The position numbers and the translations under genes are program-made. A stretch of 12,883 bases of DNA, from UHGV virus genome UHGV-1980648, one strand, 5' to 3'. The notes under the pieces are model-generated. The model worked only from the letters and a program-made list of their open reading frames with translations, searched no databases and was not told the origin of the DNA. Positions 2,669 through 12,805 of this stretch are shown here, in pieces (within the stretch, counting starts at the first letter, position 1; every line of letters begins with the position of its first letter). This stretch comes from a virus.

Positions 2669-3122
2669 GCAGCAAATCCGACAGGTCTGCCGCCAGTGCA
2701 TGGACCGCTGCCGGGCGGGTGAAACATGGCCTCCGGACCTGGCTGAGTTTGTGGCGCTGATTTCAGAAAGCGGGGCCAATCCATTTGGCCTGACGGTGGA
2801 TGCTGTGATGGAGGAGTACCGCCGCTGGCGTGATGAGTCCTGGCGATATGACGGAAGCGACAAATATCCGTGGCCTCAGCCTGTGCTGTACCACATCTGC
2901 CTCGAAATGCGTACCAGAGGGATTGAGCGCCAGATGACGCAGGGTGAGTTAAAACGACTTGCGGAACGGCAACTGACGAAATGGGCAAAGCATGTTGGTA
3001 ACGGGATGAGTGTTCCGCCAGTGCGACGACAACTGGAAGGGGCGAAACACCCGCAAGGGCCAACGCCAATTGAACGGCTGAAACAGGAATACGAACGCCG
3101 GAAGGCAGCTGGTTTTATTTGA
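2457..3122 (+). CDS. Lambda P-like replicative helicase loader
   Basis: Resemblance to lambda P by eye (ETWPPDLAEFVALISE...YPWPQPVLYHICLEMR...GELKRLAERQ against lambda P ...PSPGQFVAWCREE...YPWKSNAHYWLVTNLYQNMR...). ATG 2457 has an AAGGGGG RBS, but the ORF overlaps the initiator by 212 nt; alternative in-frame starts are 2580 and 2661, the latter forming ATGACTGA with the initiator stop. Confidence 0.7.
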   Translation: MQQHQVAPHHGQFRKFGQHVSSGNVKTDLSATETVWKLWELMGEVYSNRWTQKNGAAPSKLWIAQIGAMTEQQIRQVCRQCMDRCRAGETWPPDLAEFVALISESGANPFGLTVDAVMEEYRRWRDESWRYDGSDKYPWPQPVLYHICLEMRTRGIERQMTQGELKRLAERQLTKWAKHVGNGMSVPPVRRQLEGAKHPQGPTPIERLKQEYERRKAAGFI

Positions 3123-3941: not shown

Positions 3942-4373
3942 ATGACAAGAGCATTTACACCAGAAGAGCGGGAAAAAATTAAGGGGCTGATCGTGGAATT
4001 CGTACGCCTTAACGGACGAGGCACGATTCGGCAGTTATCGGATGAAATTGGTGTCAGTCATGCGTCTGTCGGTCGTTTATGCATGGAGCTGGCCGCCAGT
4101 GGTGATGTTTACAATTCCGGTTACGGAGTATTCCCGTCTGAACAGGCTCGTAAGGACTGGCAAAATGCCCGCAAAAAACTCTCAAGGGCAAAGTCGAAGA
4201 AACCGGTTGTCGTTGATCCAGACCTTATCCGGGCATTACCAGATGGGGAAATACGGCGCTACGACAGACGCTACAACACAATTTGTCGCGAGTGCCGTAA
4301 CAGCGAAACGATGCAGCGTGTGCTGGCATTCTGGCGAGGGAGTGCAGAGGGATTGATGTTCTCCCCGTCGTGA
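3942..4373 (+). CDS. Hypothetical protein, N-terminal wHTH-like, Cys-containing C-terminus
   Basis: ATG 3942 with GGAGG 5 nt upstream (the ORF track starts at a GTG at 3936); 143 aa; segment IRQLSDEIGVSHASVGRLCMELAASG. Confidence 0.5.
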   Translation: MTRAFTPEEREKIKGLIVEFVRLNGRGTIRQLSDEIGVSHASVGRLCMELAASGDVYNSGYGVFPSEQARKDWQNARKKLSRAKSKKPVVVDPDLIRALPDGEIRRYDRRYNTICRECRNSETMQRVLAFWRGSAEGLMFSPS

Positions 4374-4405
4374 ATGACGGGGGCTTACGTGTTCAGAAAA
4401 GTGAT

Positions 4406-5080
4406 TCATATAGAGGCTGAATCTGATCTTTTTTGTTCACGTCTGGCTTCCACCATTGCAGGCAGAGTGAAGGCGTAGACTAAAAACATTTCGGTAAAAC
4501 TCAGGATCTGGCTTGCCTCAATTGGTGTGAAAACTTCATCTGTATGAACTGCTTTATTGGCATCAATTCGTACAATATGAGCCCATTCCTTCATCTGTTC
4601 AGTGATCAGGCCTTTTTTGTAAATCATCTGAATACGTTGCGACAGCGATTCTTTTCCTGCTTCATCGCCGAGCAGTTTTTTCGTGGAGATATCGAGGACT
4701 CTGCGACAAAGAATAACCACTGTGTCGTACCGCCTCCTCTGTAAATCCTCTTTTGCCTCAACAAAAGTACGGTCTGCAACCGGGGGCGTATATTCTGGTG
4801 CGGTAATTTTTTTGACCACAGGATAGATCTTGCGGAAACGGTACTGGCTATTTCCTGAAATCAGAATATCGAGGTCTTTTTTCTGGCTTTCCGCCATGGG
4901 ACCGTGATAGTGGTCTGATGGGATTTCAACAATAGCAACACCTCCTCGATGACAACTTCTGCATACAAAAGCGACGTTAAAAAAAGGTGTTTTTTCAATT
5001 TGTTTTTCGGCAAATGCCTCAATAACAGCTCGCTCTTTTAAACAGTGCGGGCATGTGATATCAAAGGAGACTAAACCCAT
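4406..5080 (-). CDS. Zinc-ribbon plus DUF4145-like domain protein; candidate defence / abortive-infection cargo gene
   Basis: 224 aa from the ATG at 5080 (GAGGAA RBS); N-terminal CPHC...x26...CRSC zinc ribbon; C-terminal helical region LSQRIQMIYKKGLITEQMKEWAHIVRIDANKAVH resembles DUF4145 from memory; opposite orientation to the flanking phage operons. Confidence 0.6.
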   Translation of the reverse strand: MGLVSFDITCPHCLKERAVIEAFAEKQIEKTPFFNVAFVCRSCHRGGVAIVEIPSDHYHGPMAESQKKDLDILISGNSQYRFRKIYPVVKKITAPEYTPPVADRTFVEAKEDLQRRRYDTVVILCRRVLDISTKKLLGDEAGKESLSQRIQMIYKKGLITEQMKEWAHIVRIDANKAVHTDEVFTPIEASQILSFTEMFLVYAFTLPAMVEARREQKRSDSASI

Positions 5081-5324
5081 GGATATTCCTCGCGAAATTA
5101 AAGAAATTAACGAAATCATTGAGGTTACTGATCGCCCCGAGTTTACCCTCATGCGTCGTTATGAAACAGGAACCGACGAACAAAAATACATCATGGTTGC
5201 AGCATTGGCTGTGATGGCGATAGAAAGGGAGCGAAGGGAAAAGGACGTAATGGTTATTCCTGAGAGAAATGATTCACCGGATTTGAGATGGCAGGAGCCG
5301 GAGTGGGATGTGGTAATCCGGTGA
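5079..5324 (+). CDS. Small acidic hypothetical protein (81 aa), divergent from the zinc-ribbon gene
   Basis: ATG 5079 with AAGGAGA RBS 8 nt upstream; its start codon overlaps the minus-strand start of the 4406-5080 gene within CATG; no recognisable domain. Confidence 0.3.
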   Translation: MDIPREIKEINEIIEVTDRPEFTLMRRYETGTDEQKYIMVAALAVMAIERERREKDVMVIPERNDSPDLRWQEPEWDVVIR

Positions 5325-5378
5325 TTGATATTTCTCTGGGGTAAAGCGCCGCCAGAATGACGGCGCGGTAGTGGAGAG

Positions 5379-5687
5379 TTAAACGAAGCGGATCTGGAGT
5401 TTTTTCCCTGTAGCACGGGCGAATTTTTTCAGTGTGGCAAATGATGGGCCGCTTGTACCTGATGCAAGATTGCTTTCCATTCTGGTTATCGCAGTCGCTT
5501 TTGTTCCCATACGTTCAGCAACTTCAGCCTGGGTTAAGCCAGCTTCTTTTCGTGCTGCCAGCATTTCATCAAGTAGTGCGAATTCATCGGCGATGGCGTC
5601 GTATTCTGCTTTTACTGCGGGGTTAGACAACATTTTTTCTACCATTTCATCGTGTGTCATGGTAGGTGGGGTACGTTTACCAGTCAT
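5379..5687 (-). CDS. XRE-family HTH antitoxin (HigA-like)
   Basis: 102 aa; HTH LTQAEVAERMGTKATAITRMESN; AAGGAGG RBS; overlaps the upstream toxin gene by 11 nt. Confidence 0.8.
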   Translation of the reverse strand: MTGKRTPPTMTHDEMVEKMLSNPAVKAEYDAIADEFALLDEMLAARKEAGLTQAEVAERMGTKATAITRMESNLASGTSGPSFATLKKFARATGKKLQIRFV

Positions 5688-6006
5688 GCTTAACCTCCTT
5701 CATTCTGGTTTCAGCTTTTCTAAGCTCGGCAGGTGGAGTTTTTTGCGTTTTCTTTACAAAGCTATGCAACATAATGATTCGCTTTCCTTTTAGCGTGCAG
5801 TAAAAAACACGCCCTATGCCTTCCGAGCCCTTAAGGCGGATTTCAAACAAACCGTCGCCAAATGCCTCTGTATGCGGGGAACCAAGATTAGCTCCGTAAA
5901 TACGCATTTTCTCCGTGTACCGAATGTACCGGGCTTGTAAGGTCTCAGGAAGAGAAAGGATCTCAGCTTCAACCTCGTCACTGTAGTATTCGATAATGTA
6001 GTTCAT
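5677..6006 (-). CDS. RelE/ParE-superfamily toxin, phage Gp49-like / HigB-like
   Basis: 109 aa from ATG 6006 (alternative ATG at 6018); MNYIIEYYSDEVEAEILSLPETLQARY...FGDGLFEIRLKG...RVFYCTLKGKRIIMLHSFVKKTQKTP is typical of this family; toxin-first order with HTH antitoxin. Confidence 0.75.
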   Translation of the reverse strand: MNYIIEYYSDEVEAEILSLPETLQARYIRYTEKMRIYGANLGSPHTEAFGDGLFEIRLKGSEGIGRVFYCTLKGKRIIMLHSFVKKTQKTPPAELRKAETRMKEVKHDW

Positions 6007-6048
6007 GAGAGTAAACATAACAAATTTGTTATATACATTCAAGGTATG

Positions 6049-6078
6049 TTGACGACAACACATATCCGGGATTATATT
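6049..6078 (+). promoter_or_regulatory. Rightward sigma70-type promoter restarting the nin-region operon
   Basis: TTGACG (6049-6054), 18-nt spacer, TATATT (6073-6078); its -35 overlaps the -35 of a divergent minus-strand promoter for the toxin-antitoxin operon (TTGTCG, complement of 6053-6058, with -10 TATATA at complement of 6030-6035). Confidence 0.4.
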
Positions 6079-6140
6079 CTTCGCACGCCAGCAAAATCTG
6101 GCGTCGGGATTTGCACCCCGGATATTCAACCGCGACAGAC

Positions 6141-6162
6141 ACACGCCGCGAGCGTGTTTTTT
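6141..6162 (+). terminator. Intrinsic terminator or attenuator in the leader upstream of the ORF6N gene
   Basis: ACACGC-cgcga-GCGTGT followed by TTTTTTGTT; preceded by two further hairpins at 6086-6103 and 6104-6120. Confidence 0.5.
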
Positions 6163-6326
6163 GTTGTCGTAAGCACACGCACATCTGAATTATGGTGGGG
6201 CGTATGGGGGAGCCGAAAGGCTCGCCGGTTGGTTGATCCGGTAGTGCAAACCCTGTACGTCTCACCACCCAAAGATTTGCACCTGACGGTGGTGATAGTT
6301 AAATTCATCAACCAGAGGGCGTTGTC

Positions 6327-7028
6327 ATGGCGACTCAAATTTCCGTTGAAACTCTTTCCCCAATTGCCTACAACCAGATCCCCGTAATTACTACAGAATT
6401 ATTGGCGCAATTGTATGGCACTGAAACAGTCAATATAAAAATGAATTTTTCCCGTAACTCTGCGCGATTTGTACAGGGAAAACATTTCTTTAAGTTGGAA
6501 GGGAATGAACTACGTGAGTTTAAGCACAGACTATCTTTAAGCGAGTCTGTTAGCCGCGAGGTAACAGAAAGTTACTCTGTGAAAATCGCCCGCAATGTTC
6601 GCTCCCTCATCCTCTGGACAGAACGCGGCGCAGCCCGTCACGCAAAAATGCTCGAAACCGATCAGGCGAGGGAAGTGTTCGAAAAACTGGAAGACTGCTA
6701 TTTCAGCCAGGGAAAAACAGCACCAACCGAACAGCAGCCGCAGATTCAGCCACAATTCACAGCCGAGGAAATCATCCTCCTTTGCTACATGCAACTCTGG
6801 ATGGAAAAAGCCCAGGACCTTAGCAAGCAGCTGTACCCCATAATGAAAGAGCTGAACTCCTCATACACGAACAAGCTGTATGACATTGCGTTTGAGACCA
6901 TCTACATGGTGACGAAGAACAGAGACGCGCTACTAAGGGAGGTAACACGTCTCGACATGTCAAGTTCCGTTATCCAGCGGGCCATGCCAATGCTGAAAAG
7001 CCTGCGGGCAAGACAATTTGAATTCTGA
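6327..7028 (+). CDS. ORF6N-domain protein, putative antirepressor-like regulator
   Basis: 233 aa; N-terminal IPVITTELLAQLYGTETVNIKMNFSRNSARFVQGKHFFKLEGNELREFK...LWTERGAARHAKMLETDQAREVFEKLEDCYF fits the ORF6N pattern from memory; GAGGG RBS. Confidence 0.55.
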   Translation: MATQISVETLSPIAYNQIPVITTELLAQLYGTETVNIKMNFSRNSARFVQGKHFFKLEGNELREFKHRLSLSESVSREVTESYSVKIARNVRSLILWTERGAARHAKMLETDQAREVFEKLEDCYFSQGKTAPTEQQPQIQPQFTAEEIILLCYMQLWMEKAQDLSKQLYPIMKELNSSYTNKLYDIAFETIYMVTKNRDALLREVTRLDMSSSVIQRAMPMLKSLRARQFEF

Positions 7029-7612: not shown

Positions 7613-7625
7613 NNNNNNNNNNNNN
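7613..7625. other. Assembly gap (13 N)
   Basis: Run of n characters in the sequence. Confidence 1.
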
Positions 7626-9926: not shown

Positions 9927-10123
9927 TTGTCTGGCTGCCGGAGAATTTGTTAAAAATTGCATCGCGTGGTGAATCCCCCTCAGCGGCGGGGCATCTGGCA
10001 AAGTGTATGATCCAGCGAACATGCAAATTCAGTAGCCAGGCTGAATTTACCGGGAGGCACCTGGCACCATGCGACAGACAGAAATTAGGCTATACTTCAG
10101 CCCCTCTCCGGAGGGGCTTTTCT
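9927..10123 (+). repeat. Paralogous unit A: promoter-like box, structured core, intrinsic terminator (candidate small RNA gene)
   Basis: TTGTCT (9927-9932), 17-nt spacer, TTAAAAAT; core closed by CGCGTGGTG (9963-9971) pairing with CACCATGCG (10065-10073); internal hairpin AAATTCAG/CTGAATTT; terminator at 10099-10123. Confidence 0.5.
10099..10123 (+). terminator. Intrinsic terminator of unit A
   Basis: GCCCCTC-tccg-GAGGGGC followed by TTTTCT. Confidence 0.6.
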
Positions 10124-10312
10124 GTGCAGGATGTGTCACAGTTTCCTGAATTCTGAGTACTGTCCTGTTACTCAGGGTGCTATATTTTCTGACGTGATGA
10201 AAGTCTGCCGGAAGGCGGAACGTATCGGAAATGACCCAGTAGAGAAAACGTTGACTCAGATACCGATGCTGAGTTACCGGGAAACCGGCATCACATGACC
10301 GCTATCCTTCCA

Positions 10313-10395: not shown

Positions 10396-10606
10396 TTGTC
10401 TGGCCAGCGGGAAGTTTGTTAAAAAAATATGGCATGGTGAATCCCCCTGTGCGGAGGGGCATATCAGCGACAGGTGTTTGGTCACACCCCTTATCCTTTC
10501 TGGTGCGGGTTCAGGTGCTGATACTGAACTCACCGGGAGGCACCCTGCACCATGCATGAACGGTACATAGCGCTACTCTCCAGCCCCTCTCCGGAGGGGC
10601 TTTCTT
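10396..10606 (+). repeat. Paralogous unit B: promoter-like box, structured core, intrinsic terminator (candidate small RNA gene)
   Basis: TTGTCT (10396-10401), 17-nt spacer, TTAAAAAAATAT; core closed by GCATGGTG (10432-10439) pairing with CACCATGC (10548-10555); internal hairpin GTTCAG/CTGAAC; shares blocks TGGTGAATCCCCCT and CACCGGGAGGCACC with unit A. Confidence 0.5.
10582..10606 (+). terminator. Intrinsic terminator of unit B
   Basis: GCCCCTC-tccg-GAGGGGC followed by TTTCTTGTTG. Confidence 0.6.
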
Positions 10607-10613
10607 GTTGGAT

Positions 10614-10843: not shown

Positions 10844-12805
10844 ATGGCATTTAAACACTATGACGTGGTCAGGGCATCATCGCCGTCAGACCTCGCAGGA
10901 AAACTGACGCAAAAACTGAAGGAAGGCTGGCAACCCTATGGTAGTCCGATTATCTCAAACGCGGGTTATGGTGCTGAATTTATCCAGGCTATAGTCGCTG
11001 AAGGGGATATGACCTCTCCGGTAGTTTCACCGGGGGGAGATGGTACCCGGACTGTTGTTGTTGAACCAGAATATTACTTTGTCATTGCGCTGGCCGGACA
11101 GTCAAACGGTATGGCGTATGGTGAAGGGCTTCCGCTGCCGGAGACATATGACCGTCCGGACCCGCGTATTAAACAGCTGGCGCGTCGCAGCACTGTCACG
11201 CCGGGTGGTGCGTCCTGTAACTACAATGACATTATTCCTGCGGACCACTGCCTGCATGATGTTCAGGATTTGAGTAAGTTTTCACACCCGAAAGCTAGCG
11301 CAGCTCAGTATGGATGCGTGGGGCAGGGATTACATATCGCGAAGAAATTGTTGCCGTTTATTCCGGCGAATGCCGGTATTCTTCTGGTTCCGTGCTGCCG
11401 TGGTGGTTCTGCATTTTTGGCGGGCGATGAAGGTACCTTCAGCGAATCCACCGGCGCAAGCGAGACCTCGGCACGCTGGGGTGTAGATAAGCCACTGTAC
11501 AAGGACCTGCTTACCCGTACTCAGGCCGCACTGAAGGCTAACCCTAAAAATATTCTGCTTGCAGTGGTCTGGATGCAGGGCGAGTTTGATTTGAAACAGG
11601 GTGCATACGCCACTCAGCCGGGGCTGTTTGATTCCATGGTGGAAAAATATCGTTCTGACCTGTCGGAATTCGGAGGTCAGTGTCTCGGGGGCTCTCCGTC
11701 ATCGGTTCCCTGGATTTGTGGCGACACGACCTACTACTGGAAGCAGACTTATTCTTCGCAATACGATGCGGTGTATGGTGCATACAAGACGAAATCCGCA
11801 AAAAAAATCTTCTTTGTGCCGTTTATGACGGATGAAAACGGGCGAAATGTGGGTACCAACGAGCCGTCAGAAGATCCGGATGTTGCGGATATTGGGTATT
11901 ACGGAGCCGGTGGTCGAACGGACGCCAAAACCTGGACGACGGCCGACCGTAAAACGCATTTTGGATCATGGGCACGTCGTGGGATTATTTCCGACCGTCT
12001 GGCAACGGCGATTCTTGTGCATGCCGGGAGAACCGCTGAATTCATTACCGGAAAACAGCCTGATACGGTGAAGCCCACCGGACCTTCCGGTGAAGGTACG
12101 GAGAGAGAGCCGGAAGCCCCGGTCAGTAACCGAACCCTGATGAGTCTGCTGGCGTCCGGCGAAGACCTGGCATCACAGGGCTGGCGCTATTATCACAAAC
12201 CGGCGAGCGGAGACAATGTTAACAAAAACATTGCTGAAGCGGTGGTCAGTGATGCGGGGGCTACGGGAGGTAAGGCCCTGCAACTGAATAAACCGGAAAA
12301 CCACATCTGGTTTCTGGAGCATGATGCAGCCGGACAGGGAGTGGAGTTACTGAAGAAGGGGGGACGTGTGAGCGTACGGTTTAAGTTGCCGGGTTCACTG
12401 GTGCCGAATCGGTTTGCCCTGGGCATTTACTGGCAGTTGTCGTCCCTGCCGGAGGGAGTGACGCTGGCAGAGGAAGGCAACGACATGCTGATGTCCTTCT
12501 TCCTGCAGACGGATGCGACGAACCTGAACGCGATGTACCACAAGAAGCCGAATGCGAAGCTGGATACGTTCGGGGTCTTTGATAACGGATGGCACACACT
12601 GGCTTTTGAGTTTGCCGGAAACAACAGCATTCAGGTGACGCCGGTACTGGATGAGAAACGGGGGACGCCGTTCACACTGGTGAAATCTCCGGCATCAGGG
12701 GCGGCGGACAAACTGCAACTGACAGGCATATCAAAGGCGGCGACATATACGCTGCTGATTGACAGTGTGAAGGTGGAAGTGAACAACGCGGATGCCGCGG
12801 CATGA
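10844..12805 (+). CDS. nanS-p: Prophage NanS-p-like sialate O-acetylesterase (N-terminal DUF1737-like domain, SGNH/SASA esterase core, C-terminal extension)
   Basis: ATG 10844 with GGGAGGA RBS (the ORF track starts at 10814); 653 aa; MAFKHYDVVRASSPSDLAGKLTQKLKEGWQPYGSPI N-terminus; LAGQSNGMAYGEG block typical of sialate O-acetylesterases; location downstream of Q and the late terminators matches Stx-type prophages, from memory. Confidence 0.8.
   Translation: MAFKHYDVVRASSPSDLAGKLTQKLKEGWQPYGSPIISNAGYGAEFIQAIVAEGDMTSPVVSPGGDGTRTVVVEPEYYFVIALAGQSNGMAYGEGLPLPETYDRPDPRIKQLARRSTVTPGGASCNYNDIIPADHCLHDVQDLSKFSHPKASAAQYGCVGQGLHIAKKLLPFIPANAGILLVPCCRGGSAFLAGDEGTFSESTGASETSARWGVDKPLYKDLLTRTQAALKANPKNILLAVVWMQGEFDLKQGAYATQPGLFDSMVEKYRSDLSEFGGQCLGGSPSSVPWICGDTTYYWKQTYSSQYDAVYGAYKTKSAKKIFFVPFMTDENGRNVGTNEPSEDPDVADIGYYGAGGRTDAKTWTTADRKTHFGSWARRGIISDRLATAILVHAGRTAEFITGKQPDTVKPTGPSGEGTEREPEAPVSNRTLMSLLASGEDLASQGWRYYHKPASGDNVNKNIAEAVVSDAGATGGKALQLNKPENHIWFLEHDAAGQGVELLKKGGRVSVRFKLPGSLVPNRFALGIYWQLSSLPEGVTLAEEGNDMLMSFFLQTDATNLNAMYHKKPNAKLDTFGVFDNGWHTLAFEFAGNNSIQVTPVLDEKRGTPFTLVKSPASGAADKLQLTGISKAATYTLLIDSVKVEVNNADAAA

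Follow-up and report, generated by a model that had tools for sequence, protein, structure and literature searches.

A toxin-first HigBA pair of the Gp49 branch beside the isrK/C4/antirepressor operon of a lambda-like Stx-type prophage

We analyzed a stretch of 12,883 nt from the virus genome UHGV-1980648 (the whole of which is referred to as the window). It represents the early-right region of a lambda-like prophage of the Stx type, and two overlapping leftward genes in it are a toxin-first (reverse-order HigBA-type) type II toxin-antitoxin (TA) pair of the Gp49 branch of the HigB/HigA family. In combination, the evidence makes it probable that the pair is a self-contained cassette that represses its own promoter, TTGAAT-17-TATGTT, via a palindrome, that its toxin is read from a leaderless message and that it is carried as exchangeable cargo. 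A preliminary description of this DNA had proposed a toxin-first pair of a 109-aa RelE-fold toxin and a 102-aa helix-turn-helix (HTH) antitoxin with an 11-nt overlap, and this is confirmed by the open reading frames (ORFs), the Pfam matches and the predicted fold. Its account of the control region is revised below.

The toxin, the antitoxin and their pairing

The toxin is a Gp49-type HigB with a RelE fold. It matches the Pfam family Gp49 (PF05973) over positions 2–90 of the 90 in the model (4.6e-27; 94.3 bits, with a cut-off of 23.9), and this domain is present in all 120 listed toxin homologues. The family is large, with 2352 clusters at E ≤1e-5 and a typical length of 107–113 aa. RefSeq names the protein “type II toxin-antitoxin system RelE/ParE family toxin,” and the same 330-nt gene is found in E. 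coli G1/2. The best sequence match in the PDB, identified by phmmer, is 6AF3, the HigB/HigA complex of S. pneumoniae (7e-5). An AlphaFold2 (AF2) model built from 38 homologues (pLDDT 86, pTM 0.79) has a short N-terminal strand (residues 4–7), helices at 10–17, 21–37 and 92–108, and a four-stranded sheet at 46–85, which corresponds to a RelE-type antiparallel sheet with a long C-terminal helix. Foldseek searches with this model returned S. pneumoniae HigB (6AF4, TM 0.76) and the ribosome-bound HigB1 of M. tuberculosis (Mtb; 7NBU, TM 0.74), and also T. thermophilus RelE and V. cholerae HigB2 (5JAA, TM 0.58).

The residues proposed to be catalytic in Mtb HigB are E66, R68, R77, F93, K95, Q98 and K99 (PMC9098466). 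By sequence spacing, these correspond to E55-x-R57, R66 and F83-x-K85-x-x-Q88-K89 of the toxin reported here. Among the 38 homologues, E55, R57, R66, F83 and K85 are invariant and K89 is nearly so. Q88 falls outside the listed conserved columns, and the positions equivalent to K58 and N73 lack conservation. The homologue alignments begin at residue 1 of the toxin, and conservation of the protein starts at M1.

The antitoxin (“helix-turn-helix domain-containing protein” in RefSeq) matches Pfam HTH_3 at residues 44–98 (3.6e-11). Its best PDB match is 6AF3_B (1.4e-3), the HigA chain of the same complex that is the best match of the toxin. The two ORFs overlap at 5677–5687. We compared 160 loci encoding relatives of the toxin, 80 each from IMG/VR and from the genomes of a very wide range of Proteobacteria and members of other phyla, and an antitoxin homologue directly follows the toxin in 156. 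Searches with PADLOC v2 gave weak, incomplete matches: only generic HTH ones for the antitoxin, and for the toxin a match to NsnC over a 50-residue stretch (4.9e-8) and no full-length match to a defence system. Across PADLOC, NCBIfam and PHROGs, we detected neither membership of the pair in a defence system nor a finer name for it.

The pair shares several features with known Gp49-type HigBA systems, namely those of S. pneumoniae (6AF3/6AF4), Mtb (HigB1 of the TAC system, 7NBU) and A. baumannii (HigBA2). These include the Gp49 domain, the RelE fold and the long C-terminal helix, a toxin gene that precedes the gene for the XRE-HTH antitoxin, and conserved basic and acidic residues whose spacing fits that of the proposed catalytic ones. 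It differs from them in that it is prophage cargo beside an antirepressor control region, and its identity to the solved members of the family is only ~20%.

Operator, promoter and translation signals

Upstream of the toxin gene, the preliminary description had reported a perfect 12-bp palindrome, AACAAATTTGTT, at 6019–6030. This palindrome is present and forms the core of a perfect 16-bp palindrome, ATAACAAATTTGTTAT, which is very probably the operator of the antitoxin, as judged from its conservation. By itself the palindrome is weak evidence, because perfect 16-mers are common in shuffled sequence (15% of shuffled windows, with a mean of 0.16 per shuffle). Likewise, the window contains five 12-bp palindromes compared with 3.2 expected. 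The significance of the palindrome is comparative. Among 117 non-redundant relatives, 90 have the pattern TAnCn-N4-nGnTA within 60 nt of the toxin start, compared with a mean of 1.7 in shuffles, and the pattern was found four times in the 140 nt further upstream. In 84 of these 90, operator positions 3 and 12 form a complementary pair (A-T in 43, G-C in 38 and T-A in three). The half-sites thus change together, as expected for a site that is read by a symmetric dimer. We searched the entire window for a second operator, allowing up to three mismatches to the 16-mer, and found no further copy. Two other perfect palindromes in the window, CGCGCACGTGCGCG and TGAAGGTACCTTCA, are 14 bp long and located at 2125–2138 and 11428–11441.

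Promoter signals were compared in the 60 relatives that have a start codon at the aligned position. In 58 of them, a TAnnnT hexamer starts from the last two bases of the palindrome, whereas the mirror flank fits in 23. In detail, the sixth position of the hexamer is T in 58 of the 60 and the mirror position is A in 23. Given this asymmetry of the flanks, the hexamer is read as a −10 element, and an extended palindrome in its place was rejected. A TTG occurs 16–18 nt upstream of the −10 in 34 of the 60 relatives (about three expected by chance), and the distance from the −10 to the start codon is 6–7 nt in 41 and 5–9 nt in 54. The corresponding elements of the window, TTGAAT and TATGTT, are listed in Table 1. 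A −35 of the TTGAAT type is kept in POCJ13 and in the clades at 73% identity. A promoter scan of the minus strand between 5688 and 6006 found no internal promoter for the antitoxin of the kind present in mqsRA and rnlAB, and the sole minus-strand promoter site within the pair is inside the antitoxin gene (5660–5632). The hairpin just past the antitoxin stop codon, a possible weak terminator of the operon, has a folding energy of −19.1 kcal/mol (z-score −4.3), and none of 200 shuffles folded equally well. It was not called by the terminator scan because its T run is short.

The energy of the duplex with the anti-Shine-Dalgarno (anti-SD) sequence is +1.5 kcal/mol upstream of the toxin in the window and averages +0.06 among the relatives, only two of 60 having a value of ≤−6. 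Thus, the toxin start lacks a Shine-Dalgarno (SD) sequence. The same measure for the antitoxin is −12.4 kcal/mol in the window, with a mean of −9.1 in the relatives and values of ≤−6 in 42 of 50. An in-frame stop codon is found within 36 nt upstream of the toxin start in 39 of the 60 relatives. As the toxin AUG is 7 nt after the −10 and has no SD sequence, the bicistronic message is most likely leaderless and predicted to start at, or beside, the A of this AUG. The bases that form the antitoxin SD sequence, AAGGAGGT, coincide with toxin residues 103–106 and serve at the same time to encode the conserved C-terminal motif MKEVKH of the toxin family, and conservation of the protein at this motif may in part reflect the RNA signal.

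Leaderless messages are rare in Proteobacteria. Of the 37 TA gene pairs whose start has been mapped in M. tuberculosis, 32 have leaderless transcripts (PMC3898074). These share with the pair reported here a start codon at the 5′ end of the transcript. However, they were mapped experimentally, are mostly antitoxin-first and belong to an organism in which a quarter of all genes are leaderless, whereas the start of the toxin-first pair is deduced from its sequence. Our literature searches returned no Gp49-type HigBA system described as pairing a leaderless toxin message with a strong SD sequence for the antitoxin, and nothing specific on a leaderless higBA or Gp49 operon, on a case in Proteobacteria or on this prophage pair.

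How the antitoxin would act is suggested by two characterized proteins. The Gp49-type HigA2 of A. baumannii represses the promoter of its own operon, with the toxin as co-repressor (PMC5906591). In HigA2 of V. cholerae, the N-terminal tail is disordered and the HTH is C-terminal, and a single inverted repeat extends from after the −35 over the −10 (PMC11006873). The V. cholerae system resembles the pair in the size of the antitoxin (104 aa there, 102 aa here), in the layout of tail and HTH, and in the single operator that overlaps the −10. It differs in operator sequence (TGTACGC-N5-GCGTACA compared with TAACA-N4-TGTTA here) and is distant in sequence, phmmer searches with the toxin and antitoxin having returned neither HigB2 nor HigA2. 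By analogy with the layout of the V. cholerae system and with repression by the A. baumannii protein, HigA may block the promoter of the pair.

In the mechanism that we propose, HigB would be an mRNA nuclease with a RelE fold, probably active on the ribosome, and HigA would probably neutralize it through the N-terminal tail. A dimer of HigA would bind the single 16-bp palindrome through the C-terminal HTH. Because the palindrome fills the promoter spacer and overlaps the −10, bound antitoxin would shut off the operon. A leaderless message would support weak translation of the toxin, and the antitoxin would be translated well from the SD sequence within the conserved C-terminal codons of the toxin. 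This combination of weak and strong translation would yield an excess of antitoxin despite the toxin-first order, and without a second promoter.

The cassette, its boundaries and the neighboring operon

Escherichia phage PhiR5_2 shares 97% identity with the window across the TA region. Its genes are ordered cI, cro, cII, O, a DnaC-like loader, a YdaW-family protein and LygF, followed by a leftward hypothetical gene (the DUF4145 gene of the window), “antitoxin HigA,” “toxin HigB,” an antirepressor, NinB and RusA. The leftward DUF4145 protein that adjoins the pair (4406–5152, minus strand) matches PHROG 1305, “DNA binding protein” (3.7e-64), and has only a weak PADLOC match, to PD-T7-4 (E = 0.0026). 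Its gene may be a further cargo or defence-type gene of the same island.

The pair had been placed in a cargo island, and comparison with other prophages agrees with this, as it is a swappable cassette. A Stx2a phage shares 5377–5447, which includes the last codons of the antitoxin gene, and everything rightward from 6047, and between these common flanks it has another leftward cassette with a ParD-like gene. POCJ13 shares 4301–6066 and then diverges. Based on where sharing with these two breaks, the cassette ends at ~6046 and PisrK, the promoter of the rightward neighbor, begins at 6047. The full cassette was detected in 13 of 5426 complete E. coli genomes. A remnant of the antitoxin 3′ end, 69–71 bp long and 94–96% identical (window 5377–5447; 3001–3071 in locus L003), is present but unannotated in many O157:H7 and Stx2a prophages without the pair. 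In these prophages, the slot is filled by a ParD-like ribbon-helix-helix (RHH) gene and an unknown 93-aa ORF, and the cassette has apparently been replaced by recombination inside higA.

The rightward unit is an isrK/C4/antirepressor operon behind PisrK. The preliminary description had recognized the rightward promoter with TTGACG at 6049–6054, which, together with TATATT, matches 10 of 12 promoter positions, but had assigned its transcript to the nin region. Rfam and Pfam matches show that the transcript comprises isrK, a C4 RNA and then the antirepressor. The isrK match begins at the seventh nucleotide after the −10 of PisrK. The C4 sequence GTGCAAACC (6244–6252, within a complement that spans 6244–6253) is complementary to GATTTGCACC, which occurs both in isrK (6108–6117) and before the antirepressor gene (6274–6283).

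Table 1. Features of the TA cassette and of the operon to its right, with positions in the window
Feature	Position	Strand	Description
Possible weak terminator of the TA operon	5346-5366	-	GC-rich hairpin just past the antitoxin stop, then TTT only
higA-like antitoxin gene	5379-5687	-	102 aa; N-terminal tail of ~40 aa and C-terminal XRE helix-turn-helix (44-98)
higB-like toxin gene	5677-6006	-	109 aa, 330 nt; Gp49, RelE/ParE superfamily; ATG 6006-6004
Antitoxin Shine-Dalgarno sequence	5693-5700	-	AAGGAGGT, near-perfect; within the last codons of the toxin, 5 nt before ATG 5687
Predicted -10 of the TA promoter	6019-6014	-	TATGTT; shares 3 bp with the right half of the operator; 7 nt to ATG
Putative HigA operator	6017-6032		ATAACAAATTTGTTAT, perfect 16-bp palindrome; half-sites TAACA/TGTTA, 4-bp center
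Predicted -35 of the TA promoter	6042-6037	-	TTGAAT; 17-nt spacer to TATGTT, filled by the palindrome
PisrK	6049-6078	+	TTGACG 6049-6054, 18-nt spacer, TATATT 6073-6078; 10/12 in the scan
isrK small RNA (equivalent of the a1/b1 leader of the C4 operon)	6085-6162	+	Rfam RF01394, 75.4 bits (gathering 50)
isrK terminator hairpin	6141-6157	+	From the terminator scan
C4-type antisense RNA	6188-6272	+	Rfam RF01695, 74.4 bits (gathering 45)
Antirepressor gene	6327-7028	+	ORF6N 1.8e-20; P22_AR_C 2.3e-7; PHROG 377 anti-repressor Ant 5e-81

In Gifsy-1, PisrK drives isrK-orf45-anrP (PMC4825925) and translation of orf45 is needed for translation of the antirepressor; in the accessible part of that report, no TA pair is mentioned upstream of isrK. 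The operon in the window resembles isrK-orf45-anrP of Gifsy-1 and c4-icd-ant (immI) of P1/P7 in having isrK, C4 with target boxes and an antirepressor behind one promoter. It differs from that of Gifsy-1 in that the orf45 equivalent is only 14 codons long. The two ATGs are 12 nt apart (6192 and 6204), as in Gifsy-1, and the frame is closed by TGA at 6234–6236; no ORF of at least 20 aa exists in that frame at 6192–6236. Because the orf45 equivalent is cut short, coupling to the antirepressor may differ here.

The back-to-back layout of the two units is recurrent. Among 44 IMG/VR loci with a toxin at least 61% identical, a divergent isrK was identified by blast in 39 and by Rfam in one more, and the distance from the isrK 5′ end to the toxin ATG is 76, 79 or 81–82 nt across clades with differing PisrK sequences. 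Without overlapping, the conserved −35 of the TA promoter and the −35 of PisrK point in opposite directions across a gap of 6 bp. The operator lies outside the core promoter of isrK, its center being ~60 bp upstream of where isrK starts. The isrK-C4 sequences detected in E. coli come from 447 genomes, of which 330 reach ≥80% coverage and most lack this pair, and the promoter-operator design of the TA pair is kept in 80 non-enteric genomes without isrK. As most isrK modules lack the pair, co-regulation of HigBA and PisrK is unlikely to be essential. We read the adjacency as an inherited cargo slot next to PisrK, and regulatory cross-talk between the two is possible.

Several other features of this region and of the rest of the window were noted. 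An imperfect palindrome, TGTTGACGACAACA, covers the −35 of PisrK (6047–6060), and an inverted copy with two mismatches, TGTTGTCGTAAGCA, is located at 6162–6175, just past the isrK terminator. As a candidate second operator, TGTTGACGACAACA was rejected, since its four matches (1.3 expected) lack significance, the number being attained by 11 of 200 shuffles. Positions 6047–6066 are invariant in four otherwise mosaic phages, and the region of TGTTGACGACAACA could be a repressor site or a recombination joint. A related prophage contig (L095) has two tandem isrK-C4 units (1581–1769 and 2237–2425) upstream of its TA pair. The small RNA STnc100 is matched strongly at two plus-strand sites past the nin region, 9934–10127 and 10403–10612 (Rfam, 139 and 130 bits), ~470 nt apart. 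The window also includes 13 consecutive N (masked or unknown bases) at 7613–7625.

Alternative readings and significance

A number of observations weigh against an autorepressed cassette with a leaderless, active toxin. The TTGAAT and TATGTT hexamers of the window are weak, matching 8 of 12 positions, and were not reported by the promoter scan. The leaderless reading is based on conserved spacing alone. The start codon is GTG in 11 of the 60 relatives, and GTG is a poor start for leaderless translation in E. coli. An in-frame ATG occurs at 6018, with the frame open up to 6144, and 113-aa versions of the toxin are annotated in some databases. A longer toxin from ATG 6018 or beyond is nevertheless unlikely, as M1 is where conservation begins and in-frame stops closely precede it in most relatives. 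The start codon of the toxin has changed from ATG to ATA in PhiR5_2 (~6706 of that locus), in which “HigB” is annotated as 76 aa for this reason, and in two IMG/VR relatives (L092 and L094, at 2501), the antitoxin gene being intact; the toxin may thus be silenced in some lineages. Moreover, two of the three HigB toxins of Mtb, HigB2 and HigB3, are non-toxic (PMC9098466). In view of these two points, activity of the toxin is not guaranteed.

Loss of the toxin start codon and the non-toxic Mtb proteins would fit a decaying or domesticated remnant, in which the toxin is inactive or barely made and the HTH protein serves as a small prophage transcription factor. The very weak translation signal predicted for the toxin and the antitoxin 3′-end remnants in many O157 and Stx2a prophages point the same way. 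We regard this as quite improbable, however, given that the toxin ORF of the window is intact and full length relative to the Pfam model, that the spacing of E55, R57, R66, F83, K85, Q88 and K89 fits that of the residues proposed to be catalytic in Mtb HigB, and that the pair is kept together in nearly all of the related loci (156 of 160). Loss of the toxin start in some lineages is also what would be expected if the toxin is costly, i.e., active. Another possibility concerns the message rather than the protein. The toxin could be translated independently of an SD sequence from a leadered message that starts at an upstream promoter (that of the preliminary description, or another further to the right), with TAnnnT forming part of an extended operator. 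The weakness of the hexamers in the window is consistent with this, as are palindrome arms that reach 8–11 bp in several relatives and take in the TAATAT letters, and an alternative in-frame start codon before any stop in 20 of the 60 relatives. This arrangement is unlikely, as it accounts for neither the asymmetry of the flanks (T in 58 of 60, mirror A in 23) nor the TTG at 16–18 nt in 34 relatives where ~3 would occur by chance, and it sits poorly with a −10 held 6–7 nt from the start codon and with protein conservation that begins exactly at M1.

The preliminary description had instead drawn the TA transcript from TTGTCG (6058–6053) and TATATA (6035–6030), with a 17-nt spacer on the minus strand, its −35 overlapping that of the rightward promoter, so that the antitoxin would co-regulate the TA operon and the rightward transcript. 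The letters are all present, and TATATA overlaps the palindrome by 3 bp, but the site is probably not a functional promoter. Only 8 of its 12 positions match, its −10 does not end in the conserved T, and the promoter scan did not pick it up. Nor is it conserved: the spacer grows to 24 nt in POCJ13 and to 20 nt in the 82-nt class (by 7 and 3 nt, respectively), the −35 has become AATCAA in the 76-nt class, and none of the distant relatives has TTGTCG-17-TATATA, whereas the TTGAAT-17-TATGTT type is conserved and is kept in POCJ13 and the 73%-identity clades. The overlap of the −35 elements is doubtful because it rests on this promoter, and the conserved −35 stands clear of that of PisrK. The near-fixed distance between the TA pair and isrK (76, 79 or 81–82 nt) in at least 39 of the 44 prophage loci speaks for co-regulation, and a protein bound ~60 bp upstream of the isrK start could touch RNA polymerase. 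Against this, the distance differs among relatives by 3 and 6 nt, and with it the face of the helix, isrK-C4 is found in 447 E. coli genomes compared with 13 that have the full cassette, and the TA family occurs in 80 non-enteric genomes without isrK. We therefore consider this arrangement very unlikely, and prefer a self-contained HigBA cassette transcribed from TTGAAT-17-TATGTT.

The pair is a routine, uncharacterized member of a known TA family, and its toxin had already been labeled type II by automatic annotation. What is added here is the corrected anatomy of the control region, the model of a leaderless toxin and the identification of the rightward unit as an isrK/C4/antirepressor operon. 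The covarying half-sites (TAACA/TGTTA, TAGCA/TGCTA and TATCA/TGATA) provide a ready specificity series for operator recognition by this antitoxin family. The place beside the antirepressor control region at which the pair recurs is a cargo slot of Stx-type prophages, and knowing it is useful for prophage annotation.

A 2018 study of the Gp49-type HigBA of A. baumannii noted that how toxin-first systems set the ratio of toxin to antitoxin was not known (PMC5906591), and a 2020 review explained the known toxin-first cases by extra antitoxin promoters (PMC7167474). The architecture conserved over ~60 distant loci, with an operator on the −10, a start codon without an SD sequence 6–7 nt further on and a strong antitoxin SD sequence, offers a simple translational answer to this question. 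We think it rather improbable that enteric prophages have retained the cassette back-to-back with PisrK because HigA or HigB-HigA at the operator, ~60 bp before the isrK start, or competition between the abutting promoters, ties the state of the TA pair to the isrK/C4/antirepressor switch and, separately, that a leaderless toxin with a strong-SD antitoxin is a general way of setting the ratio in the Gp49 family. If true, the tie to the switch would link the pair to prophage induction or host growth arrest.

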